A stretch of 35,022 nt of DNA from Pseudovirgaria hyperparasitica (taxonomy: Eukaryota): NCBI GenBank assembly GCA_010093815.1, contig ML996608.1. One strand, written 5' to 3'. The notes beneath the pieces are model-generated. The model made no database searches and was not told the origin of the DNA. It saw nothing but the letters and a program-made list of their open reading frames with translations. Every line of letters starts with the position of its first letter. Position 1 is the first letter of the stretch. A program made the translations under genes and the position numbers. This document shows positions 267 to 35,022 of this stretch, piece after piece.

Positions 267-321
267 CTGCCCTTTTCACAACGTTCATATCTGAAAACGA
301 GCCTGGGTACGTTTAGTAAAT

Positions 322-4845: not shown

Positions 4846-5180
4846 ATTACGGTCCGGCGCACGACCGATTTCAATATGGCGCAAGCCCAGTCTCAAGAAG
4901 CTGGCAATTAAGCTACTTCTGATGTTGACATACGACTTAACATCGATGATAGTGGAGTGCGCTGGTCGCGATACTCAACCAATATCGGCGAAAGTCAGGT
5001 AAAAAAATGGCCGATAGCGCTGGCCAAGCTGGGAAAGCAAGACACGATATTATAGGAAAGAATGATCTATTATGTCTCCTAAAGAGGAATTACAAAGTCT
5101 ATGACTTAAGATGTAGCTTTCGGTCAAACTCCTGAACGCCTTCGCTCATATTCAATAACTCGCTAAATCCAATCACTGCT

Positions 5181-9074: not shown

Positions 9075-10919
9075 TAATGAGCTGGCAAGGACCAGCCTCT
9101 CGATTGAATATCTCAGGTGTCGGCGGGATGAATGTGCTTTAAAGCCACTTCCGTCGAGCTTCTTCGTTGTTGATAATAACGGAGCATGCGGCCACTATGC
9201 TGCTAAATGTTACGGACGCATACGTCACAAGCAGTATAACTGTGAGGCGCAATATGAAGCTTGATGAAAACAGTGGAGGAGTCTAAAGGCCAACCTGCAA
9301 CACGATGCTGCGTTTGATCTAGAGAACTGGAATGGTGATGTGAGCGGCTCAGCGGACACTGACCTTGAAACAAATGCGCGCGCCCTGAAGGTGAGATTTC
9401 TAGCTGCCTAAGACTTCGGAGTGAGGGCCAGATCTATATGATCGGATACGTCAGACAAGCAATGGTTATCGATTCAGACATGAAGGAGTAGAAGTTATTC
9501 CATGACAGAGAGCAGCGAAGTTCTAAGCATAGTCAGGTGACGTAATCGGACCTACCTTGGTAGTGGATCCGTATATCCATAGTTGCATGGGAAAGCTTGG
9601 CGCCCGATGTTCGCCGTGTCACCAACACACACGATTTAGTATAATCGACATTTTTATCTATTACCACTATATAATACTTATATAGTACTAAATATTACTA
9701 AATATTAGTTCTATATAATCCTTATTATATCTCTATAGCCTTTATATTACTTTATATTATCTATAATACCTCTAAAACTATAGAAAAAAAGTAGTTATAT
9801 AGAGATATTCTATTACGGGAATACGATATATACATAGATATAAGAGTATTTATAGAATATAGTAAGTTTAATAAGGGAGGAAGCCGGAGTCTACTTAGCT
9901 TCCTTAAGATATAGAATAGAGTATACTATTAAAAAGGGGCTTACTAAGCTTTATTAAGTAAGGAGAGAGTAGTAGTACGGGCGTAGTATACTAGCGTTAA
10001 GTATACCTAGAGTCTACCCTTAATATTACTCTCTCCCTCTACTTATTTATTACTAGAGTCTACTCTAGCTATAGACTACTTATAAGTAAGTATTATCTAG
10101 CTTATTTCTACTAACTTTCTAGAAAACCCTTAATAAAGCTACTCTTCTAGGCCTAGTTATTATAGTAGTAATTATTATTAGATTATAGTAATACTTATTA
10201 TTATATATAACGCCCTCTAATATAGGTCTTAGTAACTAGACTTAACGCTTACTATTAGATTATAGTATATATACCTTCTATTAAAAGAATCTATCTATTA
10301 AATCTATTATAAGTTATTTATAGAAGATAGTTTAACTTCTATATTAGTAGCTCCTTTTATATCTATATCTCTCTAGTACCGGGTAAATAGCTATCTATCT
10401 AAGAATAGCTTCCCGATATAGTAGTATCTATTATTACTCTAGTAGTAATAATTATTATTATAGAATAGTAGTAACCTCTATTACTACTATATATAGTACT
10501 CTCTATAAGCTAGACTACTTAGATTTAATATATATATTTGCGTAGTAAGTCTAGCGAAATTTTACTAGACTTACTATCCATGTATCTACTTTAATTTAGC
10601 CCTATACCTTCTTAGACTTTAGCCCTATACCTCCTTAGACCTTAGATCTATTATTAAGTATATAGAAGAAAGAGTTTAGTTCTTTAATTAAGGACTATTT
10701 TTATATTAATCTATCTCTTACTAGGTACTTCTTAGTTAATATAGTACCTATTATTGTATACGCTAGAACTATTTACTCGTCTATTAAGAGTATATAAATA
10801 AGGGTTATTTATATATTCCGGAGTCGCGCGTAAATAGATATTTATATATTATAGATATCTTATTTATAATATCCTATTCACGAAGGTCTATTTATAATTT
10901 TAAGGGTTCTAAGTATAAA

Positions 10920-11725
10920 GGTATAGTTTCTCTTCTATTTTTCTAGACCTTAATAATCTTATCTCTCTCTATTATAAGATTAGATTCTCCTTCCTTATCT
11001 AGTTAGAGTCTAGTTACTAATATTTAGGTTTTATAGATAAATAATATTATCTACTACTAGGGCTATACCCTAGCTAGTAAAGACTACGCTAACTAAGCGG
11101 TAAGTATTAGACTCTATATTATTTATATTAGACTCTACTAATTTACTTAGTTAAACCGAAGTTACTTCTACGCTTATTATACTCTAAGAAGAGTAAATTA
11201 CTAGAATCTATAAGCTAACTTAGGAACCCTTATTATAATAACCGCTAACTAAGTATTTTAGGCCGGAGATCGCTTATATTACTTATATAGTATAGACTTA
11301 GTTAGCTAATACTAGGGCGTAAGTTCTTTTCCCCTCTAGTTCTATGTTTTAATACCCGACTAATAGTTAGTTTAGACTAGATATCTATAAGGACCTCGTC
11401 TAGGTTCTAAAAGCTATAAAGGCTTTATAGTCTTTATAAGTAGCTAGTCTACTTCCTATATAAGACTATTTAGACTCTCTAGATAAATAATTACTAACTA
11501 TACTTTTAGTACTATTGCCTTCTAGATAACTACCTAGGTAACTAATATAGTAGTCTAGTAGAGTTAAATATAAGTTTAATTCTAGACTCTAGTTAAATTC
11601 TCTTACTAACCTTCTATTATAGTATAGGCGGTATTTCTCTAGTATTAGTATTAGAGCCCTATTAGGCTAACCCGTAGGCCTATTAGAATATACTAGCCTC
11701 TAGGCCTTTTCCTTTAGTATTTAGT
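10920..11725 (+). pseudogene. RIP-degenerated intron-rich gene relic, antisense and convergent to element C pol
   Basis: Six intron-shaped units: 10974-11036, 11100-11150, 11210-11261, 11319-11370, 11460-11509, 11538-11622. Each has a GTAAG/GTAAC (or RIPed T|ATAAG) donor, CTAAY branch point and TAG acceptor. Exon phases chain into one protein-like frame. Confidence 0.55.
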
Positions 11726-11799
11726 TCTCTCTCTCTTTTTTTTTATTCTTTTCTTTCTTATAGAATAAATTTCTTTTCTATTCTCTCTTAAGACTATAT

Positions 11800-12247
11800 A
11801 GTCTTTCTCTTCTTTATCTATATTCTATAGGTTACTAGATAGATATCTTCTTTTTCTTTATAGTCTATTACTCTAGTAGACCGTTATTTATCTTAGTAGG
11901 TCTGAACTTCTATTTAAACTTATCTAATATAGCGGTATCTATTAGATTTACTAAGGGTTTCTATATTAGATTATAATATCTAATCTATTTTACTAGGACT
12001 TCTCTTCTCTATTCTCGCCCTTTATTTCTAGTATATAGTATCTCTTTAATTTACTACTCTTCGTGTATCTTAATAAGTATAGAGTCTAGTTATTTATTAT
12101 TAGTATTCTATCTAGATAGAGGGTCTTTACTAGCTAGTCTAAGTAGATCTATATAGAATACTAAGTAGATATTACTAGAAAGCCCCCTTAGTCTAACGGA
12201 TACTAGTAATAGAACTTTATCTATAGTATATTTCGCGTACTTTAAGT
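11800..12247 (-). pseudogene. Element C pol, 3' part: integrase C-terminus plus chromodomain
   Basis: De-RIPed reading KKNLDSKHAKYTV..IHPVFHVDLLRPA.EDPLPGQ..EEWQIEEIL..EVLVKWIGY..PTWEPL. The frame is continuous with 33214+ once element A and one CTAGG copy are removed. End coordinate approximate. Confidence 0.85.
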
Positions 12248-12252
12248 CTAGG

Positions 12253-12390
12253 TGTTATGGATAGCGATGTCATGGCTTGGTCAAGTATTAAATTTATTAC
12301 TAGCTACTTTATAGAATCTACGTCTATCTATATCGGACCTTTAGTCCGTAGTTCTTACCGTTATTCATCTCCTTATTACTTTCTATAATA
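12253..12390 (-). repeat. Element A 3' LTR (138 bp)
   Basis: Matches 33071-33208 without indels (13 transitions by my count). Short purine tract (minus AGGGG, 12395-12399) is adjacent. Confidence 0.95.
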
Positions 12391-12908
12391 GCTACCCCTA
12401 ATTAACTTAAAACGATAAATTAACTCGAAATAATAATATCTTTTATAATAATACTAAAGTCCGTTACTCTAGTAGGCTTACTTTAATTAGGTGCTTGTGT
12501 AGATACTATGCGATATTACTTTCTAAGTATCGGTAGAAGTATTAATAGTATTATTATAATATAGCTCTACGTTTCTCCGGTTCTTACACGAGGATAGCTT
12601 CTATTACCTTTAGATTTATAGTAACTATCTAAAGTCTATTGTGAACCTCGAGGAAAGCTTCGAATTAGTTATCGGGGTATTTAAATATATGATTTAGTAC
12701 TATTCTTATTACTCTTATTTCTTTTATATTTATTTAATCCATTTATAGTATCGGTATAGCTATAGAGATCTAAGACTATTCGTATATATCGTCGTCTTTT
12801 CTTAGCTAATTTAAGTAAGTAGATTTAGTAGGAGTAGAAACTATAGGTATTAGAGTAATAATAGTTTCTATATTTATAGCCGCGGCGGCGCTTACGACGA
12901 CGGTAGTA

Positions 12909-12980
12909 GCTATAGTACTTATAATAACGTTAATCTCTATGTCGGCTATAGTACTTATAATAATATTAATATCTACGTCG
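12909..12980. repeat. 36-bp tandem duplication inside ORF3
   Basis: gctatagtacttataataa recurs at 12909 and 12945. Confidence 0.85.
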
Positions 12981-13837
12981 GTTACGGCATTAGTTTCTAC
13001 TAGTAGTATGGTTTTAGTAGCGGCTTCTTCTATTTAGGAGTCTTCTATATCATAGAATTCGTTTACTAACTCCGAGTTATTAGTATTCACGAGCTTCGCG
13101 AATTACTACCTTTATTTCTTAAACTTATTTAAGACTACTTCTTTATATATAACTTCTATTAGGTCGTTATTTATATTAGTATCTAATTCTCTAACTTCGA
13201 GTAGCTTAATATCTAGGCTCGATCCCTTATTATCTAAGAGCTTCTAGGCGTTTCGTTCTAGAAGTTCCTTAAACTAATACTCTAGCGTAGGAATTCTAGA
13301 AACTAGTATCTCTATCTAAATATTATTAAGTTTAGAATAGTAATTATAAGTACTAGCGGCCGCTACTTCATTAAAGAGCGTTTCGAAGGGTATTCCGTTT
13401 CTATTAGAAGCTTTATATAGTTTATCTTCTTTTATAGCGAGTAGATACTTAAAGCTATCTTAGATATATTACTAGTACCTTCTAATGATTTCTTTAATAT
13501 CTTATACGCCTACTTCTATAGCACGCTCTATGGTTTTCGTCACGCTATTAGGATATTATAGGTTTATAATTATCTCTATGAATCTTCGTATCTAGCCGGT
13601 GATTCTTAGTATTTATCTAATTAATTCTTTCCTAGATAAAGCATCTACCGTAGGCGTAGTAGTTACTATAGGCGTAGCTATTACTACGGGCGTAGCTATT
13701 TCTACTATCGTAGCTATCTTCTACGTAGCGATCTTTTATACTTCTACTATAAACCTTTTTAGAGTCTCCCTTATAATATCTTTTATCTAAGCTTCTATCT
13801 CTTTCTTATGGGCTAAGATAAGCGTGTTTATTTCCGC

Positions 13838-13939
13838 CTCTTATTAACTAATAGCGTTTACGGTTAACGCGGCGGGAATTAAGATAGACTCTTATTAACT
13901 AATAGCGTTTACGGTTAACGCGGTGGGAATTAAGGTAGG
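13838..13939. repeat. 51-bp tandem duplication inside ORF3
   Basis: ctcttattaactaatagcgtttacggttaacgcgg recurs at 13838 and 13889. Confidence 0.9.
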
Positions 13940-16900
13940 TAAGGTCGCGGGAATTAAGGTAGATCGTAGCTCCGTTAGCTCTATTAGAGTAGACGGAAGT
14001 TCTAACGACGTAGAAGCTACCTTAGATACTATTATTTTAGCGGTAATTAACTTTATCTTCTTTACTATTTTAGCTTTCTTTGCGGCGGTAGCTAGTATAG
14101 GTTTTATAATAGAGAGTAGAACCTTAATTACCTCTATTACCTTCGTAACTAGAGCCTATATTTCTTCTAGTATCCTTAATTTAATAACGCCTTCGGTTAG
14201 GTTTATTAGAACGTTTAAGGTAGATACTCCGGCCTTTAGTCCCTTAGCGATCTCTCTTACCGAAATAATTAGCTATACCTTATTAGTATTCGTGAATCCT
14301 TTAATTACGAAAAAGTTATCTATTTTATTAAAACTAGGTAGCGAGCTTATAGTAATAGTTTATATAGAGATAGTTTACGTAGAGGTTTCGGGTAGGGTTA
14401 AAGTATATCTACTAAGTAGGTGTCGTGGTAGGAGTTTATTAATTTTCCTACCCTATATAATTCGATCTTCGCGGGAACCGTCTTAAATAATTATCGGTAT
14501 AGTTATCTAGTCGTTCGTAATACCGTAATTTAAAGGATCTATAAACTATAGTATTTTTTTATAGGCCGTGGCGAATTTCCGTGTAAGGTCTTTAAGAGAG
14601 ACTACCGAGATTAGCTATATATATACTATATCTTCTATATATAGCGCGTGGACTTCTTTAAGTAGCTTTTCTTCTACTCCTTAATACTAGTCTACTATTA
14701 CGCTCTCTATTAGGCCCTATTTTCGAACCAAGTCTTAGAGTATAACCTTATTTAATGGTATCTATAAGTGTACTTCACGGACGTTTTTTATAATTCTAGC
14801 CTTATCTTCTAGGGAACTTAGACGGTAGATTAACTAGAACTAGTATCCGGACGATTATAGTACTATTATATAGTTACCGTTAAGTCCTTTAAGGCGTTAT
14901 ATAATATACTAGAATCTTACGTATCTATAGAGGATGTATTATTAGTATTTATATACCACGAGCGTCGCTTCTTAATTATATTATAATTACTATATGATTA
15001 AGTCTAGAGGTCCTATTACCTATTCCTAGGCGATGTCTCTTTACTACTAAGCTATAACAGTAACCTAAACTAATCCGTCCCTCCTTTACTATACGGCGTA
15101 GCGCCGAATATTCTTGCTATTTAAATCTTATAGCTAAGATACTAGTATATTCCACGCGTAACCATAGTAGCTCCGGATTTCCTCTATAGTATCCGTTATA
15201 AAGTATCGTGCCGGAATCTACGTATATTCTACTTAAGCTATTTCCTTTATAGAGTATCTATTACCTAGTTTTAAGAGCTACGCGATAATACTACTCTTAG
15301 ACGATTACTCTACCTTAAATCTCGTGCCTTTTAGAAGTGTAACGGTAAAGTTCCATTCCTTATCCGCGGATATTATACTCTCCTTAAGTTCTTCGTTAGA
15401 AACCGTGGCTAGAATCTTTATAAAGAATTCTTTTTACTTTAGAATATACCTAATTTCGTCTATAGGTACTAGAGTAAGTAAACCTAGGTAAAGACGGTAT
15501 AGATTTACTCCTAGGTCCGAAAATTCTAACTAATATTACCATATAACGACTGGTTCCTCCTCTTCTATTATAGGCGGCTTATATTTATAGTTAGAGTTAG
15601 AGATTATACTACCATCGAGAATGTTATAACGCATGGTACCGTGCCTTATACTATACTTATTATACGCCTTTTATTCGCCCTTTCTTATAATCTTAAGCTT
15701 ATTTTTCGTCTCGATTATAATATAATATAGTATAGTAATATTTAGTAGTATGGTTAGACCTTTTAGATCCTACGTAACTCCCTTATCTTTCTTATATAGA
15801 AGGTTAATCTATTAAAGCTTATGTAATACTATTTATAATACCTCTATATTCGAATAATAAACCCCGTACTTTAGAAGAGAAGGGTCCTACTAGGTAGGAT
15901 TCTTAATATTAGTATCGGTAAGAATCGGTCGCTTCTTATAGAGCACGTACTAACTAATAGTAAGATAGTAGAACTTTCTATTAACCGTAACCGGCTTTCC
16001 TTTATTATCGTAGTATAAGTATCTATCTTTATAGGGAGGGTCTAGCTTTCGCGGTAGAATATAGAAATTATCGCCTTCCTTCGTTATAAAAGGTAATACT
16101 TCCTTTAAAGACTAAGTCTTTGATACTTAAAATAATACTATAAATCTATTTATAATATTCTTCTAGTAAAAGATATTATTAAGTTTCCTATAGAATATTA
16201 ATGCTACGTAAATCTCGAGTTTATACTTATTAGAAAGGTAGATACCGTAAGTTAGTATCGCAAATCGGAGGCCCTTAACTATAATTCCTAAGGTAGAATA
16301 ATCATAGACTGGTTTTCGTTCGTTATATCTTCTATTAAAGCTTCCTTTTTATTCTATATTGATTCTAATACGCGCTTTATAGAATAGGAAGGTTTCTAAT
16401 TATATAGTTCTAATAATACTACTTATTATTCCTTTTACGCGAGGGTACTTTCTATATACCGCTCGAGTTATAATAGGAACTATATTATATTTTAAGGCGG
16501 TAGACTTCTTAATTAGTAACTTCTTACTCTTTATAGCCTTTTCTTCGTTAATTTCGCTCGCTAAATAACCTCTATTACCTTTATTTCCTTTCGGCTTTCG
16601 CTTACGACCTCTCTTAGTAACTGTTTTTAGTAGAGTTAAGGCGTTTTCCTTATCTAAGGTAACTTTAGCTTTATTATCTTTACTCCGTATTATCTTTATA
16701 TACTATAGATATAAGAGTAAGAAGGAATTAATAACTATTTAAGATTATAGATAAAACTTATTAAGCTAGAGTCTCTATAAGGTTAAGGTAGAGGATAGAA
16801 AGATAAGTTACGCGTTAAGTTAAGGATAAGTAAGTAGAAGGTAAATCGAGCTCGGTGGTAAGAGTGTTCGCGAGCGTAACGTTACTATTACTACCTTCCT

Positions 16901-17619
16901 TTAACGGTAGAGTGAATTCTCCTTTTACTAAGATTATATCTACTAGTACTAGATTTACGTCGTTAAGAGGACTAATAGCGGTAAGTATAGTAATAATATT
17001 ATTAACTACTAAATAGTATCGTGTTCGTTATCATTATTATATATAGTAATATATTTCTACTAACGGATACTAAACGGTAGTCTATAGCGTGTACTTAATA
17101 GCCGATTAAGATATATATAGTAAGGAGGGCATTCTCGGATCCTAGTATTAATCTATATAGATATAGTACTATGAGATTACTCCTTTATCGTCCTTACGGA
17201 ATTCGTATTATAATATATTAAGAATTCGTTTAAGCTCGTAGGTATATAGTAATAATTAATATTACTATATTTTTATTTACGGATTCTATTTCTCTTAGAC
17301 CGTTATACTATTTTACTTACTATTACTACGAATATTTAGGGGACATGATTATAGGAATAGTTATATACATAGGCGTAGTTTCGGTGAAGTATGTTTTTTA
17401 GATTAGAGATATATCTAATATTAGATATAATACTTTAATACTATTACACGTTTAACATTAGATATAATTCTTTTATTAATATAATTCTTTTATTATACGG
17501 TAGTACTTCTAAAGGGTAAACGCGAAAAGGAACGTATATATACAATTAATAATAATTCGGAATTATATCTATCTTAGGTAGGAACCTTTCGGTTTCTAAC
17601 CTAAGCTAGGATTTTAACG

Positions 17620-20600
17620 CTATATAAGAAACGCCTCTTAGTACTTAAGGCTATGAATTCCTTTTATCTAGGTCCTCTTTTACGGTTTCTTATCTCCGTT
17701 TTTAAGGTTAGATATATTATATTAAATTCCTCTCGAAGTTCGCGGGTATCTCTAAGGTCTTCTTTATTATACCATTAGTTATAAATTAGACCCTAGCCCT
17801 TCCATTTAACTAGGTACTATTTCTTCTTTATATTCTAATTCTAGCGTCGGTCGAGAAACCTTTTAATTTCATAAGACGGATATTCGTCTAGATCGTCTTC
17901 GGCGAAAACGCTAGGTAGTTTATTAGTACTATAGTTATATCTAAATAGATCCGTACCGGGCGGGTATAGTACTAGCTAGCTAACTAATACTACTAGGTGA
18001 ATTTTTACGCTCTCCGGAAGGTCGAGTTCGTATATATTATTTCTAATACGTTATAAAATTTTAAACGGACCGGTTCTCTAAATATCGAACTTCCTATTTA
18101 CGTGCCCGTGTACGCGGTAACTATAGTATAATTATAGATATACTTCGGCTCCGGGTTTTAGACGAAGAGGCTTATACTTCTTATTATATCGGTACTTTAT
18201 TATTACCGCTACGAAGCTAGTAGCTTCGGCGGCTATTTCTCTATTCTTTAAACGGAGCGATTTATAATCTTTAGGAGGTAATTTATGTAGTATATCCGCG
18301 CTATCTTTAACTTTAAAACCATATAATTACTTATTTAGAGACATGCTAGTAGTTTCATTTATAGCGTTATTTATAAAGCCTTATAGGAATAGTAAGTAGG
18401 TATCCTAATCTTCGTTAGGATTCTCGGTAACCACGAAACGAATTCTAATCTCTATAGATTAGTTTATTCTCTCTATCTAGCCGTCTATTTATAGGCGATA
18501 TACGGCGGACATTAGAAATTTAACTTCTAGCATGCTAAAGACCTTTTACTAGAAGGCTAAAAGCTATCTTATATCCCTATCTAAAATAATTTCAGCCGGA
18601 ATTCCCTAATCGTGTTTAACGAGGTTTAGTAGAATTAGACTAGCCTATTCTTTAGCGCCCTAGTTAGTGCGTCCTAGAACGAGAAGTACTCTTTTTATAG
18701 CTTTATAGGTAATAGGCGCTAGAGCGTCGTAACCCGTTACTATTTCAGGTAGAGCGGTAATAAGGTCGAGGTATATGGTTCTAAATGGTACGTGCTAAGT
18801 CGCGATAGGCGTGAAACTCCCGTATAGCTATTACCGAGAGGTCCTCACCTCGTTACATTACTTATAATATTTAATATAGGCCTTGACTTCTTTCGAAAGA
18901 TGGCGTACGTAGAAAGATACGGACACTCTCTTATAGAGTCTATTCTCTCCTTAATAGAAACTATAATTATAAAGTACGTTAAAGATCTCGCTAAGAAGGG
19001 CATAGGGAATATATAGCCTTTCCCGATTATTACCTCTATCGATGTTATAGATTATCTTATCTTTTATAAAGAATTTTAGTCTATTTAGAGGTTATGATTT
19101 CCCTTTTAGTAGTAATTTACCTTTAGAGAAGTTAACGTATATTAGTACGTTCTCGTCTCTATGTTAGAGAGTATCTTCCTTAATTAGTACTTCGCGTACT
19201 TTATTCCATGCCTCGTCGTCTTTATAGACTTTTTATAGGCGATTCTTAAATTTATCTACTATTTTAATCAAGACTACGTGATAGACGTAGGTGAGTTTAG
19301 TAATCGTCCCTTTATCGCTACCGATCGTAAAAGCCTATGCGATCTTATCTAGTATATTACCTTCTACGGCTAGCGCCGTACTTATAAGCCTACTAAGAGC
19401 ATCTAGTATAATATAGTTTCTACTAGGGCGGTATCGGATATCGAGCTTATATTATAAGAGATATTAAGCTACTCGGATAAGACGGATATTCTTATAGTCG
19501 GCGGCTATGCTAGAGAGCTTCGTCTAATATATAATAGCTATTATTATAGTATAGTCCGTGAATATAATAAACTATACTAATAATTTAACGAAGTGTTAAA
19601 GTTTAGTTACTAACTAAACTAGACTAGCTATTTCAAGTTCTATGGGCTAATAGTTTCGTTTAGTTACTATAATAGCTTTACTAAGAAATAATATTAGTTA
19701 TATTACTTCCCTTAGAAATAATTCTACCTGGCGTAGCCACGATATTCTTAGGGGGTTAAGTAGATTAAGATTAGTCTTATTAGGATTAACTAGATCGTTA
19801 ACCGGAACTAACGATATTACTAGATCTAGGTCCCCGCGAACGTGGTATATAAAGACTCTAAAGCTATACTCTTTTAAAGCGTTAACGTCTAGAAACGTAC
19901 GGCTTACCGGCTTATAGTAATAATAGAAGATCGGGTCATCCTATAGTCCTTATATGGCTTAAAATGATTTAATAAGTGCTTTAGTCTATGGAACTAGCCT
20001 TTTTAAGGCCTATACTTTTTGCTAAGTCTTTTTACGAGGGGCATAGCGGAAGAGCTTAGTACTAGCTTTTAGTAGCGGTAAGACTAACTATATATAGTAT
20101 AGTAACTATCCTTATAGATATCCTGCGATTCCTAGGTATTATTTAAGTACTATAGTATCTTTTAGGAACTATATTTCTTTTAGAGCTATAATTCTTTCTA
20201 CCTTTAAAGATAGTCCGAAGGCGTTAACTCTTTTTCTAAGAATTATAGTACTTAGATACCCGACGAACGTCTTGGTTACGGCGAGAGACATATTAAAGTT
20301 TAATAGTATACTCTATAGTTACCGTAAATAATAAATATACTCTTCGAATATCTTAGAGAAAACTACTATATCGTCTATATAGGCTTTTACCTATAGGAAT
20401 CCTCGTAGAAGATTATTAAGTTCCCGTTACACGTACTAGACTAAATTAACGTAGCCCATAGTAAGAACTTTTAGGTATTCTTAATCTCTATAGATGTTTA
20501 CCGTGAATTACTTACGATCTTCTTCTCGTACTAACTATTAGTAGAATATACTTATGGCGTCTATTATTATAATATAGTGGTAATCTCGGCTAGCCTAGAG

Positions 20601-23600: not shown

Positions 23601-23855
23601 CTAGGCTTACTAAGCTATAATAGGAACTGGAATTAGAGCCGGAATTAGAGGCTCGAGACTTTAAGGCGTTCCGACTTACTCTCTACTTCTCTCTACGCCT
23701 TAGCTCGAGCTTCCTCTTTAATAAGGATTCTCTAGTACTATAATCGCCTTATAAGGATTAGAGATTATCGTCTCGCGAGAATTAGAGTTCTCTAGTCTTA
23801 CGGGTTCGTCGTGAAACTCGAAGTCTTATAGTCTTACGGGCCTTTTCTTTAGTAT
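17620..23855 (-). pseudogene. Element A fused gag-pol polyprotein (~2080 codons): gag, C2H2 finger, protease, RT, RNase H, integrase, chromodomain
   Basis: Landmarks checked (gag core, C2H2, protease, RT, integrase, chromodomain) share one frame (2 mod 3). De-RIPed readings: EDIGFFDP..LRGTAQIWY gag core (~23200-23000), VDTG protease (~21755), AY(I/V)DDIVVFS RT (20381-20370), RNase H DAS and NYWPTELE (~19880-19630), integrase HPQTDGQTER (~18490), chromodomain YLVKWKG (~17805). Ends approximate. Confidence 0.9.
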
Positions 23856-24549
23856 AGTAGGAACTTTAATTAATAATAGAGGGGACGAGGAAGGTAAATT
23901 TACTTCTCTTAGCTATACGAAGTTTCTAAAGTTACTAAAATATTTAGATTAACGGAAATTTACTACTAGCCTTTTAACCTTTATAGCTTTAGTAGTCGCT
24001 AGACGTATTCTATAATCTTTATTTATAAGATAGTTCTAGTTAGGAGAATATCTATCTTTCTAAGGCTATTTACCCCTAGACTATAAACGATTTCGATTTC
24101 TTAAGACTTCTAGATATACGTAGGTAATACCTCGAAGTAAGATAAGGGTATAGAGGTTTAATTCATGTAGTAGACTATCTTTAAAGTAATAAATAAGTTA
24201 ATAAGCTATTTTAATAACTTACTCTAATAGCTTAGAAATTAGTTCCTTCTATAATACTAGTAAGGGAGCTAGTATATCTTATATATTCCCGAGTATACTA
24301 AGAATATCAGCCGTAGGAGGCGCGGACGTAAGCTTCTCTAGTATACTTAGGTAATTAGAAATGTTTAGTAGGAACCTACTCTAACCTTAGTAGCTTACGG
24401 AAACCGAGGCTTCGTATACTAATTATCTCGTCTAATTAGTACTAACCTATTCCTATAAAGTAGGGTTTAACTAGTACTAAGTATAACCGGTTATAGTATA
24501 GTATCGTATTCCTTACTTAATAGGAACTAGAGAATCGTAGAGAGCTCGA

Positions 24550-24787
24550 TGTAAAGAGTGAAGACGTGGGATAGTAGTCTAATAGTTCATAGAGAGACAT
24601 AGGAATATATTTATAGAGTAATCTTACTCTTATACGAGGTTGATTCCTAACGAGTAGAAATCGGTTTATACGGTCTACTTATATAGTAACCTCGCTTAAC
24701 TCAGCTAACTTAACCTAGCTCTAGCCACTACGTGGCTACATGGATTAGAATAGTCTATATAGGTCTATTATAGTTCCCGTCCTAATA
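24550..24787 (-). repeat. Element B 3' LTR (238 bp)
   Basis: Matches 32357-32594 without indels (13 transitions by my count). Confidence 0.95.
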
Positions 24788-25268
24788 ATATCCTTCTTCT
24801 TTTTATGCTTCGCCCCGAAGCACTTAAGTATATATAATCCTAAGTCTCTATAATCTATCGTGTACCTATATATCCGTAACTAAGTTCCTATAACGTTATA
24901 ACCATCCTTAATATAGGTGAACTCGAGATTCTAGTTTACTTTTATTAGTTTATGCACGCGCTTATCCCTTGCTTCGTGGCTACTACCTAGGATATATAAT
25001 TACTACTTTAGTCGAGTATATATTTAGCTTCGCTCACCTTTAATTTTATTCTCTAGTATATCCACCTCGCTCTTAAGGTAAGTCGTTAATTTATATACTA
25101 TCTTCTCTAGTTTAGGTTTAGAAGGGTCTATAGTAGTCTATTCTTATTAGAACCGGTCCTATATAACCTATTCGCGTTATTACGGTTACTAATTTAGCTT
25201 CATTAATCGCCGTTAAGGGTAGACGAATATTCCTTTCTTAGATCTCTAGCTAATATATATATATATAG

Positions 25269-26581
25269 ATATCTAATACTAGTCCTATCTCTAAGCCTGC
25301 CTCCTCCTCTCGTAAGACTTACTCTAAAGGTATCGTCTCCTCCCCGGCCACGCCGGCTAAGAAGCCTACCTATCGCGGTAGTATAAAGGCGCGCTCTAAG
25401 TCGGAGAAGAGAGTAGCTAGGGCTGCTACTACTACTACCTCTACTACTAATATAGCCACTAGTTACTCTAATCTAGGTAATCCTAGTACTAAACTTATGG
25501 ATAAAGTGGTTATAGGTTCTCCTCTCACTCTAAAGCGCACGCCGCCTACTCTACCTCCTCTAGAGGATAAAGAAGATCTCGTTATAGATAATAATCGCGA
25601 GCCCTCGCGCTTACCCACGCCGCCGCCTCGCCGCTCTTCCTTCCGGTCTAATATAGACTAATTTAGTTACTCTAGGTCCTTTTAGGACCTTAATATTCGC
25701 TCTAAACCCTAGCCTACTAATAATAAGACCTAGGTCGCTAAGGATACTAAACGTAGTTACGGTTTACGCCATAGAAAAACAGCGAACTACGGTTTAATAT
25801 ACTATAAGTATATTAAGGGCTATACGGCCGGCTCTAAATATCTCTTTCACTCTAACTCTAGTATTAGCTACTACTCTACTAACCGCGACGGGCCTATACG
25901 CCCTATCTTTACTCTACCTACCCGCTACCGCCGCTATACCGTGACTAGTAAGACTTATCTATAGGTAAGTATAATAGGCTATCTTAATCTAGTATGATCT
26001 AAAGTAGTCCGCGCTAATATATTCTTAGATTTCTATATATATATAAGATATATATAACGATCTTCGCGTCCGTGAGACCCTCGGGGGTCCTTATAGCCGC
26101 CTACCTACTATATAGAGGGAGTTTAGGGAGCGCTATAAGCTCTTTCTAGAGGTTATTAAAGTATAAGTTACGAGCACGTTAATTATTTTTAACACCTATT
26201 AATTTTTCTAGCCGCCGCGAGATCCCTAGCGCCTAGGCTATCTATTCTAGGGAGTCTATCCTAGCTATAGAGGCCGTAGAGAGGATTTACTCTATCCCCC
26301 CCCGTCCGTCTCGCGCTACTAACGGATCTTATAAGAGGTCTACTATTTCTCCCTCTAAGTCGCCTCGTAAGAGGGTATATATTCCCTTCTAGATTATTCT
26401 AGATCGTATTAGCTAACTTTAGACCTAGTCGCTACGCTCCGGTACTTAAGGCTCTTCCCTCTAGGCTCTAACGGATTAGGTTATTACTCTAGAGGCTAAG
26501 GTCGTCGTCCTCCGCCGCCATATCGTACGGTTAGAGAGAACTATACTAGAGATTAGGACGGATAATAAGATAGAGGAGTAG
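25269..26581 (+). pseudogene. Element B antisense accessory gene, 3 exons (25269-25964, 26029-26162, 26212-26581), ~400 codons; basic/disordered N-terminus, putative Cys-rich motif, C-terminal coiled coil
   Basis: First ~125 codons are stop-free despite RIP. Intron 25965-26028 is GTAAGT..GCTAAT..TAG. Intron 26163-26211 has a RIPed donor (T|ATAAGT) and supplies exactly the needed phase change. Exons total 1200 nt. Confidence 0.7.
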
Positions 26582-27039
26582 CTCTATGGTTCTAGCTCTA
26601 TATATTGGCTCTATGCCTAGCTCTATATATTCTAGATCTACTATAGGTGGTACGCGCCGGCTCTATTTACCTAGCTTTTATCCGTTTTAGTCCTTTTTAG
26701 ACCGTTTAGATACCCGTCGGCTAGTTTCTAGTAATTTAATTCTTAACTTAACGATATTATATATACGCTCGCTTAGCTTATAACTATCGGTTTCTATATT
26801 CTGATTTTCCTTAAGTTACCTAAGTGTAGGTACCATATATAAATTAGTTTATCTCTAGAAATTCTATTAGAGTACCTAAACTAGTAGCCTAGTAGTTATT
26901 AGTTCGGGTACTCTAACCTTTTATATTTCGTGTTAAGAGTTTAATTCTATAGTAGGGTACCTTTTTTTAGGTTCTTAGTCCTATGTTTTTCTCATATATA
27001 ATAGTCCATATTAGTCCATTCTAGACTCTTCTATATTAT

Positions 27040-30000
27040 TCTATTATAGTATGTCGCGTTACGTTCCTAAAATAGTTATTTACGCTTTCTTCGCGTCTAG
27101 TAACCGTGCGACGCTTGAATTATAGGACTACTATATAGAGTTTTCCTAGTGCGCGTCTAGATTTCCTAGTTTGGTACTTCGTTCTCTACGGTATCCTTCT
27201 TCTTTTTATAACGACCGCGACGTCGCTATACTTATATTAATAATATACTATTCTACATCTTTTGCTTATACGCAGCCATTATAGAACTTAAGATATATAC
27301 CGCTAGTTCCTAGGTGTCCTTATTCTTAGTATAGTCCTTCTAACGGATTCTATATTTCTAAACACCGTCTTTATCGATCCTATATTCGATAATATAGTCT
27401 ACTTTAAACACGTCTAGTCTATCTTAGGGTATAATAGAGTATAACTACACGTTCGTGCGGCCATATACGTTAGGTTAAAATCTTTTAAGTAGTAAGACGT
27501 AGAACACGTTATAGATTCTTATATCGCTTCCTAAGTCGAGCTTATAGACTCTTATACCGATATAACGTTTAATTCGGAAGGGACTAGCCATTTTATAATT
27601 AAGCTTCTTATTTACTCGCGACGTTCGTATATTATAGACGTTAAGAAGGACCTTATCGTCCTCCTCGTACGTCTAATCCTTAGCTAATCTATTATAGTAC
27701 TTCGTATACGAGTCGTTTACTTATTAGATTATAGCGTAATAGTTACGTACGGTTTTAAAGATTTTAATCGCTAATTCCTAAGCGTGGACGTTCACGTCTA
27801 TTATTCGATTAAATTAGACCGTCTAAGGCTTAAAACCTATCCTTAGACTACGTCCGAGGTTCGCCTAGAAAGGTATAATACCTATCATACTATAACGACT
27901 ATTATTATATACGAACTCTACTATACTTAGTAGGGAGGCCTAGTCGTTCTACTTAAAATTATAGAATACGCGTAGGTAGGCCTCGAGCGTCTAGTTCTAT
28001 CGCTCTATCTAGCTATCCGTCTAAGGATAAAATGCTATAGACATGTTTCTATTTATACTTACCATTTTATAGAATAACGTCTAGAATTTAGACGTAAAGG
28101 TACTTTCTCGGTCCGTAACGATCCTTTTTAGTATACTATGGACCTTAATAATCTCGTTCTAGAACACCTACGCTAGTTCTTTAGATATAATCATCTTCTA
28201 TACTAGGATATATCTAGACATCTTTATAAGTCTATCCACGATAATAAGAATAGAATTATAACTTATCCTAAGCATCTCGCTTAGAGATAAGTTAACTATA
28301 AAGTCTATAGTAACGTCTTCCTATATAAAGAGGGGGGCTGAAAGAGGCTATAAATTTCTATATAGCTTATGCCTAGGGGCCTTTATTCTTTAATAAATTA
28401 GATAAGTAGCTATCTATTCTTCGACGTACTTAGGTATATCTTTCTAAAAATAGTACTAACGAATTAAGCTTAGGGTACGTATATACCTAAAGTGTCCTAC
28501 TAGGTTAGCGTTATAGTATCGGCTAACTACGTTAAATCGCGCGTTATCTATTAGTATATAGTACTTTCTATCGTAGTAAAGCAAGCCGTCCACGAAGGTC
28601 TACTTATAGTCTACTTTAGTCCGTAATAACCCATCTTACTATATTTTATATAACTTTAAAACTATCGGGTCTATCTTCTATAGATCTATAATTAACTAGG
28701 CGAGGTTAATTAGATATTTACGCCGGGTATTATCGCCCTTCCTAATAGCGCTAATAAACGGCCTACTAGGGACTTCGGTACCGCGTCTTTAGTTACCGGC
28801 TTTAGTCTTAGAGATTTGATTACCGGTATCGACGTTAGTATCTCGCTAATCATCTAATAACTTAAAATCTAACCTCGTCCTTAAGAGTTAGGCCTATAGC
28901 TACTCTAGAACTCTATGGCTACTATAATTCTAGGCGCCTTCTTTATAGTTAGGTCTTCTTAACATTCTATTAGCTAGGTTTATACTTCTAGGTTAATAGT
29001 AGATTATAAAGTGAAAGTTCGTAAGCTACTTAGTCTATTAGATCTATTAATGGTTTAAAACCGTTATACTTATAAACCCCTTTAAGTTATAGTAATTAGT
29101 TAGTAACTCGACGTTATACATGGCACCTTTAAGATAATATCGCCACTATTTAAACGACTCTACTATTACTAGTAGCTCTTAGTTATAGATAGTATATCTA
29201 GTCTTAATATCGACTATTTTACGTAAGAAGAACGTAACTAGATACCATTAGACCTTTTTAGACTTAGTTAGTCTAGGCTAGGAGAGAATACCTAAGATTA
29301 TAAATTCTAACGCATCGGTTTTAACGTAGATAGGTTTAGTCGGGTCGAAGTACACTAGTAATAGGGCAGTTATAAATGCCTCTTTGATTTTCTTAAAGGA
29401 GGCCCTTTCGCCTTCCGATAATTCTATAGGCTACGATTTAATATTATACTATTTCTATCTACCGCGGACCGTAATAGATGAATCTATAGTAGTAGTACGC
29501 GTGTTAAGCGGTGCTACTAGCCGGGAGAAATACTTAATGAATTTTTAGTAGTAATTAGTAAATCTAATAAAGACACGTATATCTCGAACCGATCTTAGTT
29601 TAGGCTAGTCCACGATAGTAGCGACCCTGTCCCTTTCTATGGTTATACCTTGATTAGTAATAACGAAGCTAAGGAAGTTAATATGGTCCTGGTGGAACTC
29701 GTATTTAGATAGCTTAATATATAGCTTATATTTTTCTAGCCTATCTAGGACTACACGTACGTGCTAGATGTGTTCTTCTTCGTTATTAGAGAAGATAAGG
29801 ATATTATTAAGGTATATAATGCACGTCGTGTTAAGTAGGCCTACTAGCGCGTTATTAATATATACTTAGAAGGTTCCTAGCGCGTTAGTTAGTCTAAAAG
29901 GGACTACTATATACTTAAAGTATCTATAACGGGTCCTAAACGCCGTTTTCTACTCATCGCCCTTCTTAATATATAGGCGGTAGTAGGTATCGCGTAGATC

Positions 30001-30935
30001 GAGCTTAGTAAAGATCTTCACGCGCTCTAGTCTATTAATAGACTTAGAGATAAGAGGTAGTAGGTAACGATTCTTTCGCGTAATATTATTTAGACTATAG
30101 TAGTCGATACATAGACGGAGACTTCTATCCTTCTTCTTTATAAAGAGGATTAGAGCTCTAGCTAGGGATATACTAGGCCTAATCTATCCTTATATAAGGT
30201 TCTTTTCGATGTATTCTCGGAGGACCTATAGCTCGGGTTCTAATAGAGGGTAGATAGGTCCGTATAGGGGTTATTAACCGTCTTTAAGGTTAATAGTAAG
30301 GTCGGTAGATTAGTATTAAGGTAATTTAGACGAGTCAATCGCTAACGCGATATATTAGTATATTTTATACTAATATAGTAGGTTTTCGTCTACTTTAATA
30401 CTAAGCTCTCTATTTTAAGTAAGTAAGAGGACGTAGATAGCGGAGATTACCTTTTCGTAGTCCTTCTAGAATTATTCGTTGTCGACTAGCTATACTAGGT
30501 TCTATTATAGTAGGTATATACGCTAGCCAGCTGTTTTCTAGATGAAGTCTAGTTTCGGGTTATATTTTTTAAGCTATAGTATACCGAGGATCATGTCGAA
30601 GGGACTATCTACTATAATAAAGGTTAAGTAGTAGGGTTTCCACTTCCCCCCGCTATTCTAGATGCTATATTTAATAGTATAGATACTCTACGATTTAATA
30701 GGACCGTCGATACTATAGAAGGTAGCACCTATTAGTACTTAAATATTAACGTTAAGTTCTCGTGCTTATTAAGTCGATATAACGTTAGTAGCTAAACCGC
30801 TATCGAGTATTATAGTCTAATGTTATCTATAAGGGACCTCGATAGGCCTAGCCTATAGTTTAATATACTAGTTAGCTGGTTATCCCTCTATTTTAGTTAC
30901 GTCTATAAGTCACGAGGGTTCCTCGTAGGTAGTTA
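27040..30935 (-). pseudogene. Element B pol: protease, RT, RNase H, integrase, chromodomain
   Basis: De-RIPed readings: LDSG protease (~30804), YLDDILIFS RT (~29814; now YLNNILIFS), ETDAS..ELLAIV RNase H (~29320-29160), STAFHPQTDGQTERQNQ integrase (~28030), KKLDHKMAGPF (~27590), chromodomain YRIRWKDY..DTWE (~27330). Confidence 0.92.
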
Positions 30936-30942
30936 GTTTTTT
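30912..30942 (-). promoter_or_regulatory. -1 programmed ribosomal frameshift signal (gag->pol) of element B
   Basis: Slippery A AAA AAC (30942-30936) in the gag frame directly before the stop codon. A 9-nt spacer is followed by stem-loop ACGAGG-AAC-CCTCGT (30926-30912). Pol motifs lie in the -1 frame. Confidence 0.75.
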
Positions 30943-32315
30943 ATATCGTGTACCGGGTAGTTAGGCGCGATATATCCTAGCTACTAGCACTTATAGTATA
31001 TAACTAACTTAGTATCTATATTAGTATTCGGTGGTTTCCCTAAGCGGCACTCGGGTACTATATGGTCTATCCTACTATAGATATAGTAGGTGACTTTAGG
31101 TCGTTTATATAAGTCGTTTCTCGCGTCTTAATATATTAACTAGTGGAAAGATCCACGGTACGGGCCTCGTCTTCTCGAGTTCGTAGAGTGGTAGCGCCTA
31201 CGAGGTATTCCGCGCGATCTATTACTAAACTAGTCCTCTTTAGATAATTTTATATCGGATTAGATTAATAGAGATAGTCGTGCGTCTATACGACGTTAGT
31301 TATTTATTATACGCTAATATCGTTCTACGAGATTCGCGAGTACCTAAAGATTAGTAGAGATAGACGTTATAAGGTCGATGCGTTCCTTTATACTTGGGTT
31401 AAGGGACCTTTTAAAGTCGTCGTATTATTAAACTATATAATCTTCCTTAGCTTCTCTCTAAAGAGGTCGGAGATATTTAAGGAGTTATAACGGGGATTAT
31501 CTCTCTCACTATTAAGTCTTAAAGATATAGCTCTAAGTCTATTTATATCGCTCGGCTCTATCGCCGAAGTATTAAAGAAGGAATTTAGTAAACGTGTCCT
31601 AGTTATACGTATCCTTAGGGTGTTTAATTTAATATGCTATCTAACGTTTAGATGGCGTTAGGTCTAGGTAGTTCTATACGAACCTAATCTTATTACTATC
31701 GTTCGTAAATAGGTGGAAGAATCAGCTATACTAGTAAGCCTATTCGTGAAAGCTCCTTCTAGTTTTACCGTTAAAGTAAGGTAGTTTCTTAGGCTAAGGT
31801 AACTAGGATAGTAATAGACTTGGTTAGACTATTTCGGCTTAAGTTAATCCATATTAGTATAGATTAGTTACTACTAGCACTAAAGCGCGTAGTACGGCTT
31901 CGAGTCTAGCGGTTTATCCTTACGCTTTATCGAGTTTACGAAGTTACTACTCGAGCTAAGCCTAACGCTATCTCTCCGTATATAGCTTAGTATATACGTT
32001 ATCGTAAGGCGTGGTTAATGTTAGTTGGTTCTAACGAATTAATTCGTTAACGTTAATAGGGTCTAGTCTTATAGTAAGGATAGGTCTAGTATAGTATAAA
32101 CTAGACCGCGATAGAGTATGATGGACTCCTTCCTTATTATCTAGGTAATCTTCTATAGTTATATAGAATACCGTACTAGTTATTAGTGCGATAGCCTATA
32201 GGGTATACTTATTAGTAGAGGTGGTTATAGGGAGACTATTCTCTTCGTTTAGATTTAGAGAGAGTCTCTTATATAAGGTAGTACCACGGGTATTATGGCG
32301 CGTAGTAGGAGCCAT
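30933..32315 (-). pseudogene. Element B gag with two CCHC zinc knuckles
   Basis: Intact ATG at 32315 (MAPTTRHNTR). De-RIPed knuckles CYICGRMDHIAPEC (~31090-31045) and CYKCQQPGHIAPNC (~31010-30955). Confidence 0.85.
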
Positions 32316-32356
32316 CTCTATAAGCTACCGTCGTGCTATATAGAGAGAAATCAAAA

Positions 32357-32594
32357 TATAAAGAGTGAAGACGTGGGATAGTAGTCTAATAGTTTATAGA
32401 GAGATATAGGAATGTATTTATAGAGTAATCTTACTCTTATACGAGGTTGATTCCTAATGAGTAGGAATCGGTTTATACGGTCTACTTATATAGTAACCTC
32501 GCTTAACTTAGCTAACTTAACCTAGCTCTGGCCACTACGTGGCTACATGGATTAGAATGGTCTATATAGGTCCGTTATGGTTCCCGTCCTAACA
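32357..32594 (-). repeat. Element B 5' LTR (238 bp)
   Basis: Pair of 24550-24787; followed by TSD CTCGA. Confidence 0.95.
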
Positions 32595-33058
32595 CTCGAT
32601 CCTTTTAATGCACGACTTATTTAGAAACACTAGTACTTATACTACTTTTTCGTAATCCTCTAGAACGAGTCTCACGGAATTTAGTATAGTTAGAATAAGG
32701 TAAGGCCTTTAATATAGATACTTATTCCTGTTTTCCTCTAGTAGTAAATCCTTTATTTATCGTTCCCTTAGCTCCTTCCTTAGGACTTTTAGTTATAATT
32801 TTATACTCTTACGAGTCTTAATAATAGTAACGGTAATAAACGTTATCTAGTACCTAGTATTCTTTTATCCTTACTAATTATCTTACTATACTTATAAACT
32901 TCTTTTACTAAATTTTACGGAAGCGTCTTCCGTTTACTAAGTCGGGATATTAACGTCTTTTAATTCGGCTTCGGAGAACTAGTACGTTAGGGCGTTAGTA
33001 TCTTATATTTAACTAGTACTATCTTTCTTTCGAAAATAATTAGCTAGTAGTATACTTT

Positions 33059-33067
33059 TAGCTACTA
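33059..33067 (-). promoter_or_regulatory. Putative tRNA-iMet-type primer binding site of element A
   Basis: Minus strand reads TAGTAGCTA 3 nt inside the 5' LTR. This de-RIPs to TGGTAGCTG, resembling the Ty1/Ty3 PBS start TGGTAGC. Confidence 0.45.
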
Positions 33068-33070
33068 AGA

Positions 33071-33208
33071 TATTATGGATAGCGATGTTATGGCTTAGTT
33101 AAGTATTAAATTTATTACTAGCTACTTCATAGAACCTACGTCTATCTATATCGAACCTTTAGTCCGTAGTTCTTACCGTTATTCGTCTCCTTGTTACTTT
33201 CCGTGACA
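33071..33208 (-). repeat. Element A 5' LTR (138 bp)
   Basis: Pair of 12253-12390; followed by TSD CTAGG. Confidence 0.95.
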
Positions 33209-33213
33209 CTAGG

Positions 33214-34870
33214 TTCTTCTTTAGTTAACTTATTATATAGTTTCTTAAATTAAGCTATACTTTATCTTCTATACGGTATACTAGTACTAGAGTTTACTTT
33301 CTATTCACGGACTTCTCTTATTTTTAGATATTCTCTACTATATTTACTTAATATAGCTTAGTAATATTCTTTATCTTTTTTATAAAGGTTTCCGCTCTTT
33401 ATTTAGTAGAGAGCGAGAAACTAGAGTTAGCTTCTATCTATAGAGGTATAGAGGATAGTAGATTATATCTATAGGTAGTAAAGAAGGGGCTTATTTCTAG
33501 CTCTACTTAGTAGCGCGCGTTTAGTACTAGTTATATAGTTAGAAGCTAGGTTTTCTAATTAGACTATTTCTAATTAATAAAGTTTTATAAGTAGCTCTAT
33601 ACCTTCTAGTTTATTCTCTCTAGACCTCTATCTATTTAAGGATAGTATATAGAGCTTAGTCTATAGATTACTCTAGTAAGGCTATAAAAGGTCTTCTAGA
33701 AATAGCTAGTCTAGTTTATTCCTTAATCGCTCGTTATCGCTAAGGGTATACCGTAGTACCTTACCTAGTAATCTATAAATACCTTAGCGTATTCCTCCGC
33801 CTTTATAGTAGGTATTACTTATAATACTATAGTCTTACTTAGACGGTCTTTAATAATCTATAAGTAGCGGTTCCCTTCTAAGCCGGGTAGATTAGTAATA
33901 AAGTCTATTAAGATCTTCTAGAAGAAATAATTAGAGACTAGAAGAGACTTTAGAAGTCTATATTTTTATTTCTACTATACCTTATTCCGTCTATAGTAGT
34001 TATAATTTTATAGAAACTACCTTATATATCTTATCTATAGTAGCTAGTAGAAGCTTTAAGCTAGTATAGAAGTAGTAGAGTCTTAGCCTAGATAGCTATA
34101 GAGCGGTAAGTTATATATAGACTAGATAAGCTTAGTCTAAAGGACGTCCCCTTCTAAATCGCTAGGCCCTAGTACTTTATACTTAGCTTTTATAGTTATC
34201 TTCGCGCCTAGTACCTATAGTTTTCTATAGTAATTAAGGTAGCCCTCTAAGTTAATACTATAATCTACTACTTAGACTTTTAGCTTTACTTTACTTAGAA
34301 CTAACTATACTTCTTCTATTACGGCACGAAGTATAGTTTAGTATATTAAGTTCTTTTTTACTATTATAGTCTATAGATTGTTTAGAGAGGGGTCCTAGAA
34401 AGGCCCTAGAGAAGCCGGCTCTTTATAGGCGGGCTTAGTCCCTAGTAATATATCCTTAAATAGTAAGTTAGTAGTATAGATCGCCGCTAGCCTTACCTTA
34501 GAGACCGGCTAATCTTTAATATCTTTAGGGTCTAGAAACCTATAGAACCTAGACTCTTTATTATCTACTCTAAGTATATCTTATTTCTATCTTAATAGAG
34601 TATTAGGGATAACCGCTTTAGATCCCGGTTAGTAAACTAGGGAGAACTAATACCTAGATAAGGTTTTATACTACTATATTTAGCGTTCTAATAGATAACG
34701 CTTTATTATAAAGTATTTAAGGTTCTTATAGTCTATCTATATAGTAAAGGGACTATACGCTTTTAACTTAGAGTTCTAGAACTTTAAGTAGAAGATTATA
34801 GTAAGTATTTCCTTATTATAGATATCGTAGTTAATCTCTACTTTATTTAGCTTCTATAAGAAAAACCTAA
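33214..34870 (-). pseudogene. Element C pol, central part: RNase H and integrase of a third Ty3/Gypsy element (LTRs not identified in window)
   Basis: De-RIPed GFFSQKL..EINYDIHDKEMLAI, YRPG....PDALSRR, HHCC finger HDSPLCGHPGR..CDHC, GLLKPLPVP..ISMDFITDLP and AYHPQTDGGPERMNQ. Confidence 0.9.
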
Positions 34871-35022
34871 TAGATATAATAAATTACTAGCTAGAGCCAT
34901 AGAAAGATATATAGACTCTAGTACATGTAAACTTAACCTCTACTATATCTAATAAGTTTATATAAGGTATTTCCTTATTAGGAATAGCTTAATATTAGTA
35001 ATCGATATTACTAATATTATCT

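Follow-up and report, generated by a model that had tools for sequence, protein, structure and literature searches.

Do fungal long terminal repeat (LTR) retrotransposons carry additional genes downstream of pol, and can such genes still be recognised in heavily mutated DNA? This question is raised by a stretch of 35,022 nucleotides from Pseudovirgaria hyperparasitica (contig ML996608.1, assembly GCA_010093815.1), referred to here in its full length as the window. A first-pass annotation had read three different nested chromoviruses in it, each with its own accessory gene after pol. The three elements, designated A, B and C, lie in a block that has been degraded by repeat-induced point mutation (RIP). 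The observation is partly confirmed here, with one clear extra gene in element A, one doubtful case in B and none in C. The explanation that we consider probable is a pile of RIP-inactivated Ty3/Gypsy elements, in which A has a genuine third gene, B a small antisense open reading frame (ORF) that is unproven, and C no extra gene at all.

The block begins at ~9595 and runs to the window end at 35022. It is AT-rich and heavily RIP-mutated, as shifts in GC content and dinucleotides that are the signature of RIP make plain: GC is 0.27-0.41 vs 0.45-0.51 in the flank, TpA/ApT is 1.5-1.9 vs 0.76, and (CpA+TpG)/(ApC+GpT) is 0.04-0.20 vs 1.19. TGA codons are nearly gone from the block, and its longest open frame has 195 codons. 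The block consists largely of three Ty3/Gypsy elements, all on the minus strand and nested in the order C > A > B; B has landed in A, and A in turn within the integrase of C. RIP mutations mark every copy seen, and in the window the block has no functional gene left.

A long protein-coding segment after pol in element A

The segment that follows pol in element A was a long protein-coding gene, with a stop density, three-base periodicity and codon usage that match those of pol. It occupies 12550-16699 on the minus strand as a RIP-degraded ORF of ~1,380 codons in one sense frame, in a phase different from that of A pol, and ends ~150 bp short of the 3′ LTR. As a coding sequence between pol and the polypurine tract and 3′ LTR, it belongs with what have been termed additional ORFs (aORFs). 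There are 88 stops in the 1400 codons read. Counted over 1300 codons the frame has 77, vs 186 and 139 in the other two sense frames, and the pol of A gives a comparable picture (72 stops in 1339 codons vs 169 and 172). In 300 first-order Markov simulations, the lowest count among the three frames averaged 125.5 stops (standard deviation 7.4), and the lowest value reached was 104. Periodicity is equally pronounced, with chi-squared values of up to 80 over 12600-16200, vs 18-49 in pol and <10 in the spacer that separates the two.

Codon usage was scored with a log-odds model trained on the pol genes of A and B; in cross-tests, with one pol for training and the other for testing, the model chose the correct frame. 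The frame of the extra ORF scores +171 bits, the remaining five frames are negative, and the same frame is top-scoring in 17 of 18 overlapping 450-nt segments between 12526 and 16800. The ~0.9-kb spacer between pol and the extra ORF (16800-17713) has no coding signal: all three minus-strand frames have 32-34 stops per 333 codons, periodicity stays below a chi-squared of 7, and the codon model is negative in six of six frames.

Length changes within the segment also bear on its reading frame. All five tandem arrays inside the extra ORF have a period divisible by 3 (36, 18, 15, 51 and 15), as do 5 of the 21 elsewhere in the block (hypergeometric p = 0.004). In-frame tandem duplications of 51, 36 and 18/15 nt lie in its C-terminal third, at 13838-13938, 12909-12981 and 13651-13739 respectively, and at two of these three sites length differences of 36 and 63 nt separate other copies from this one. 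Within the extra ORF, four indels in other copies have a known net length (6, 0, 36 and 63 nt), and one copy has a net difference of 53 nt within the spacer; these counts are small and cover part of the contig alignments. The longest open frame of the block, at 13899-14486 on the plus strand, is antisense within the extra ORF. It was rejected as a gene and taken instead to shadow the sense frame: the codon model scores it near zero vs +17 to +23 for the sense frame there, and A pol has a comparable low-stop antisense frame (83 stops in 1338 codons).

Whether the segment belongs to the family or to this one copy was judged from Logan contigs of four public runs (X1-X4), aligned to 8801-28800 at ≥80% likeness. 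X1 and X2 are DNA runs from one sample, from which the window itself may derive. Summed contig depth is not copy number and was used solely as a ratio within one element. In X1 and X2 it is 275 and 255 over the single-copy flank, and 2,774-4,499 and 1,796-2,811 over A as a whole (12803-24141), which places A at ~10-16 times the flank in X1. The extra ORF has a mean over six bins of 3,786 and 2,334, and pol, likewise over six bins, 4,195 and 2,309, giving ratios of 0.90 and 1.01. Since its depth equals that of pol, the ORF moves together with A and does not exist as separate copies. In B, the four post-pol bins have depths of 146,000-171,000 (X1) and 55,700-71,100 (X2), and the two integrase bins 202,000-263,000 and 79,700-82,000, with ratios of 0.68 and 0.78 in the two DNA runs. 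Summed depth thus supports, indirectly, the view that the post-pol DNA of both A and B is family-wide, and the possibility that it was a copy-specific insertion, which would have undone the first-pass reading, does not hold for either element. A 60-kb contig from another locus also has the A LTR adjoining the end of the extra ORF. The differences between contigs and the window copy are transitions at 2001 of 2136 places (X1), an excess expected of independent RIP.

The putative product of the extra ORF appears to be an orphan, with no detectable homologue. A phmmer search of 1.84 billion representative proteins gave no match at E ≤ 0.001, no chain in the PDB matched at E ≤ 1, and Pfam at E ≤ 10 found no family in the pieces of this ORF, in the A spacer or in three frames of B. 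The six frames of the window hold no second similar stretch, and the post-pol segments of A and B are unrelated. Scans of metagenome contigs with the extra ORF and with A pol returned pattern matches, among which no relative was confirmed. The equally mutated pol of A still finds Ty3 Gag-Pol (PDB 7q5b, E = 8.3e-31), so a conserved enzyme or host gene in the ORF would probably show. The predicted protein has no Cys, no Gln, 0.1% Met and 0.6% His, and nearly all Trp is gone too. Its N-terminus is basic, with KRGRKRKPK at residue 29, although in a composition rewritten by RIP such motif readings, a nuclear localisation signal for example, are unsafe. No signal peptide was detected, and a single 19-residue stretch exceeds a Kyte-Doolittle value of 2.0 (2.09, with charged residues inside). 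An env-like identity was considered and rejected on the basic N-terminus, the missing signal peptide and the want of a convincing membrane span.

A doubtful case in B and no detectable cargo in C

After the chromodomain of B, pol-like codon usage runs on to ~26930 as a basic Pol tail, which forms part of the 2.4-kb post-pol stretch found across the family. The remainder (24811-26929) is likewise family-wide, with periodicity limited to about 24900-25800: chi-squared values of 35-48 are reached over 24901-25800 and nowhere else in the post-pol region. Within it lies a candidate antisense ORF of 130 unspliced codons (25269-25661, plus strand), rich in Ser, Thr, Pro, Lys and Arg, whose codon positions are purine-rich at the first, C-rich at the second and T- or pyrimidine-rich at the third. 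An open frame of 130 codons was reached in 0 to 2 of 1000 Markov simulations. Searched against a word-indexed protein collection the candidate frame gave no match, and Pfam gave none. Two spliced antisense genes, in B and C, had been proposed on first reading. In the B post-pol region there is no sign of splicing, and the one unspliced frame does not have the codon usage of pol. A small antisense gene in B is possible; it would be an analogue of brtn of the Botrytis element Boty, and its strand is unproven. The ~0.9 kb of coding-like periodicity may be best read as such a small brtn-type antisense ORF.

The B family (24142-28800) reaches ~500-950 times single-copy depth in X1 and 200-320 times in X2, and is probably one of the dominant repeats of the genome. 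Contigs from other loci join the A spacer to the B LTR (17166 and 24736) and the end of the B LTR to a repeat at 9.8 kb of the window (24788 and 9805). From such joints it follows that B-family elements have also inserted into A-family and other repeats at further loci of the genome.

Nothing comparable was found in C, where the DNA after pol shows neither periodicity nor a frame scored positively by the codon model, and its open frames all fall short of 70 codons, so that the second proposed antisense gene has no counterpart here. Directly after the chromodomain-like end of C (~11870) there is a purine-rich tract (~11700-11860). The segment 10840-11870 (minus strand) can be read from sequence, contig joints and depth steps as this tract followed by a probable 3′ LTR. 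Three contigs in the DNA runs join other sequence at 10837-10840, as at the end of a repeat unit, and depth in X1 steps from 3,643 (11469-12135) to 5,535-6,536 (10135-11468) and then to 17,220 (9468-10134). The 'extra' DNA of C is therefore probably the purine-rich tract, a ~0.86-kb 3′ LTR (~11703 to 10840) and a different repeat. Element C is without detectable cargo, although it is the most mutated of the three and a coding signal may have been lost.

The different repeat, also RIP-mutated (9595-10839), borders the single-copy genes of the flank, where single-copy contigs stop at 9593/9594. Its depth is 17,220 and then 6,536 in X1, vs 3,643 for C and 275 in the flank. Contigs of X3 and X4 match 9567-9793 at ~85-90% and continue beyond it into unrelated GC-rich sequence.

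Architecture of the nest and its flank

The elements were delimited by Pfam searches of translations with stops read as X and by a blastn comparison of the window with itself. Retrotransposon domains were found on the minus strand only, and the self-comparison gave two LTR pairs. Both A and B have the Ty3/Gypsy order of pol domains (RVT_1, RT_RNaseH, Integrase_H2C2 and SH3_Tf2-1) and an LTR pair with a 5-bp target duplication.

Element A spans 12253-33208 on the minus strand and measures 12.9 kb without B, which is oversized for a Gypsy element with LTRs of 138 bp. Its 5′ LTR (33071-33208, minus strand) and 3′ LTR (12253-12390, minus strand) align at 12255-12383 and 33073-33201 with 93.8% identity over 129 nt. 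The ends of the LTRs were read from the sequence, and the TG..CA ends of the 5′ LTR are altered by RIP. The target duplication CCTAG lies at 12248-12252 and, on the other side of A, at 33209-33213. Upstream of the B insertion, 32600-33070 holds the leader and the first part of the internal region (minus strand, from sequence), and a G-rich polypurine-like tract (12391-12401) adjoins the 3′ LTR. Gag-pol of A takes a single phase (17714-24544, minus strand), as assigned from Pfam, the Ty3 match and the frame map of the codon model. Pfam places its domains, all on the minus strand, at 20261-20681 (reverse transcriptase), 19452-19697 (RNase H), 18840-19007 (integrase zinc domain), 17970-18143 (SH3) and 17724-17873 (chromodomain).

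Element B is complete within A (24550-32594, minus strand; 8,045 bp). Its 238-bp LTRs (32357-32594 and 24550-24787, minus strand) are 93.6% identical over 249 nt by blastn, and the target duplication TCGAG was read from the sequence at 32595-32599 and 24545-24549. The polypurine tract AAAAAGAAGAAGGA, also read from the sequence, abuts the 3′ LTR at 24797-24810. Its pol, including the basic C-terminal tail, covers 26930-31000 (minus strand; Pfam and frame map), with Pfam domains on the same strand at 29662-30141 (reverse transcriptase), 29059-29415 (RNase H), 28378-28539 (integrase zinc domain), 27478-27657 (SH3) and 27262-27408 (chromodomain).

Element C is represented by two pieces. The upstream piece is pol (33209-35022, minus strand), truncated where the window stops and where A has inserted, and the Pfam matches are limited to RNase H (34650-34871, RT_RNaseH, E = 1.3e-7) and a weak integrase core (~33700-33900, rve, E = 0.014), both on the minus strand; the remainder of C, including its 5′ LTR, lies beyond the end of the window. 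The reading frame is interrupted by A within the integrase and resumes at 12252. The downstream piece (11871-12252, minus strand), with the C-terminus of the integrase and a chromodomain-like end of pol, continues the frame of 33209 onwards across A and scores +19.9 in the codon model.

Three nested Gypsy elements are thus present as first described, and their classing as chromoviruses is less secure. The chromodomain match of A is weak (Pfam Chromo, E = 9.6e-4; 19.5 bits, cut-off 25.1), with a further match to CDYL2 chromodomains in the PDB (E = 3.5e-4). That of B is also weak (E = 0.0029, 17.9 bits), and C has no chromodomain match at E ≤ 1 and a resemblance by eye only. The LTRs of A and B are indeed unrelated, with no mutual similarity in the self-comparison, and their pol products are 22-25% identical. 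Different modes of gag-pol expression had also been suggested. The frame map is consistent with this, as gag and pol of A share one phase and gag of B is one phase off its pol, but in mutated copies the difference is unproven. The gag regions of A and B match no gag family in Pfam at E ≤ 1.

Outside the block, positions 1-9594 are ordinary flank, with genes for a zinc-type alcohol dehydrogenase, a WD40 protein, a GPN-type ATP-binding protein and a DUF3112 protein. Two further ORFs of the flank (7641-8165 and 8292-9074, both minus strand) have no Pfam family, and Rfam and tRNA scans of the whole window found nothing. The 164 bases at 9200-9363 are skipped by contigs of X3 and X4 and have CT..AC ends; they resemble an intron removed by splicing from a minus-strand gene adjoining the repeat block, which suggests that both of these runs, whose kind is not stated, are RNA. 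The same contigs give no cover over 10135-28800 except 0.21 in one X4 bin, a blank from which we draw nothing.

Known additional genes and competing explanations

Extra ORFs between pol and the 3′ LTR, in sense or antisense orientation, have been reviewed for plants (PMC7264820). Plant aORFs are described as present in most copies of a family, without clear homologue and of unknown function, with a regulatory or nuclear role proposed, and capture or nested insertion are given as possible origins (PMC7264820). Examples are the sense, env-like genes of Athila and Bagy2 and the antisense genes of Grande, RIRE2, Retand and PvRetro13, and the products of some antisense aORFs are nuclear (PMC7264820). 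As its example from outside plants, the review gives Boty, found in Botrytis cinerea and Sclerotinia sclerotiorum, whose antisense gene is brtn (PMC7264820). A Boty-like element of Botrytis has gag, a zinc finger, protease, reverse transcriptase, integrase and a chromodomain in addition to brtn (PMC4227169). The current genome annotation lacks brtn, and extra ORFs have also been predicted in other Botrytis elements (PMC8365987).

The extra ORF of A shares with plant Ty3/Gypsy aORFs its place between pol and the 3′ LTR, its family-wide presence and its lack of a homologue. It differs from the env-like aORFs of Athila and Bagy2, whose hosts are plants, in that its product is without their signal peptide and membrane anchor. 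The candidate ORF of B shares the position and orientation of brtn in Boty (BcGypsy1), a likeness drawn from descriptions of the element. By comparison with the ORF of A, brtn is antisense, whereas the former is a sense ORF of ~1,380 codons. LTR retrotransposons of bdelloid rotifers, which are animals, have a captured third ORF besides gag and pol (PMC5408684). Gypsy elements of Leptosphaeria maculans such as RLG_Rolly (11,875 bp) are alike in being oversized, nested and RIP-degraded, and in lying within AT-rich isochores that adjoin GC-balanced gene regions (PMC3105345). On a comparison of sizes, identity with these families was rejected, since neither A nor B has their LTR lengths (235, 250 and 179 bp) or element lengths (PMC3105345). 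No sense-strand extra ORF of a fungal element was found in the literature searched, which is not proof of absence. The slot after pol, proposed at first as overlooked, had thus already been described in plants and in Boty (PMC7264820; PMC4227169). What is new, as far as the literature searched goes, is a large sense-strand member in a fungal element.

If A had a genuine third gene, its position between pol and the polypurine tract would make it part of the genomic RNA, to be copied into each new insertion, and it is because of this copying that its abundance would equal that of pol. Translation of the protein probably relied on a subgenomic RNA that arose either by splicing from the leader, in the manner of env-type genes, or from an internal promoter, and the product probably served the element's own cycle as a lineage-specific accessory protein.

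Several points weigh against this account. The segment 14776-15225 of the extra ORF, the sole exception in the codon scan, scores -1.1 and is stop-dense; an intron, local decay or a change of frame might account for it. The peak of periodicity coincides with in-frame tandem repeats and with Ile-, Thr- and Val-rich low-complexity stretches. The frame has no surviving start codon, although the ATA at 16699 may be a mutated ATG, and no intact A ORF was seen. A missing homologue also fits a non-gene, and as RIP has stripped the frame of Cys and Gln and of nearly all Met, His and Trp, the sensitivity of the searches is lowered. In B no frame on either strand of the post-pol region scores positively or like pol, two minus-strand frames are also fairly open at 25200-25700, and the segment 24900-25800 has triplet-like runs. 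The boundary of the C LTR is set by three contig joints alone. Finally, the depths compared for A and B are summed over contigs.

The size of A, 12.9 kb with LTRs of 138 bp, and the 0.9-kb signal-free spacer that parts the segment from pol would both suit a different origin, in which the 4-kb segment would be what is left of another mobile element, or a host gene transduced by an A-family ancestor, carried as passenger DNA without a role. Capture and nested insertion are indeed among the origins considered for plant aORFs (PMC7264820). We nevertheless regard this as unlikely: the segment is not bordered by terminal or inverted repeats, its summed depth is that of pol, which leaves no room for independent copies, and its codon usage matches that of A's own pol. 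Nor does it contain a reverse transcriptase, transposase, helicase or other Pfam family (E ≤ 10), and a conserved host gene or transposon enzyme should have found a match among the 1.84 billion proteins, as pol did. It could also be argued that the post-pol regions never coded and are long 3′ untranslated regions, whose signals arise from base composition, tandem repeats and RIP. The absence of pol-like codon usage from every frame of B and C, the lack of periodicity in C, the lack of a homologue for any frame tested, and the low-complexity stretches and tandem arrays inside the A ORF all agree with this. We hold it to be very unlikely, however. In A a single frame over 3.9 kb equals or exceeds pol in stop density, periodicity and codon score, and simulations of the same dinucleotide content reached at lowest 104 stops vs the 77 observed. 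For B, too, the 130-codon open frame, which occurs in at most 0.2% of simulations, speaks against it.

Beyond the one-gene account lie two broader proposals. In the more limited, A would have had a third gene for a protein of ~150 kDa, expressed from a subgenomic RNA and acting in the nucleus, through entry of the pre-integration complex or interference with silencing, and B would have acquired its gene independently in the same slot. This is decidedly unlikely in our judgement; if true, extra genes would be recurrent in fungal Gypsy elements, under-annotated and hidden by RIP. The more sweeping proposal, that of the first-pass annotation, makes the post-pol region a general cargo site of fungal chromoviruses, with nuclear products that counter RIP, heterochromatin or RNA silencing, and this we hold to be highly improbable. 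The two families, with pol only 22-25% identical, do both have family-wide and mutually unrelated post-pol DNA with some coding signal, and there are basic clusters in the A ORF (KRGRKRKPK), the Pol tail of B and its antisense frame; some plant antisense aORF products are nuclear (PMC7264820). C, however, gives no support, and the gene of B is unproven. The nuclear reading depends on Lys- and Arg-rich patches, which in sequence rewritten by RIP are weak evidence, and Pfam (E ≤ 10) gave no domain with a link to chromatin or RNA silencing. Counter-defence in particular finds no support here, and copies that differ almost solely by RIP-type transitions (2001 of 2136) imply proteins that failed to shield their families. 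The original interpretation is therefore supported in part: the segments of A and B are family-wide, but the pattern is neither general nor new as a concept.

Extra genes of LTR retrotransposons are well catalogued in plants, and for fungi the literature searched gave one named case, brtn of Boty. The third gene of A is a second and very different fungal case, with ~1,380 codons on the sense strand and without relatives. It also illustrates that, even where RIP has mutated the DNA throughout and no ORF is intact, stop density and periodicity taken together with a codon model trained on pol can reveal coding frames. With un-mutated relatives, if related fungi have any, one could test what the A protein does.

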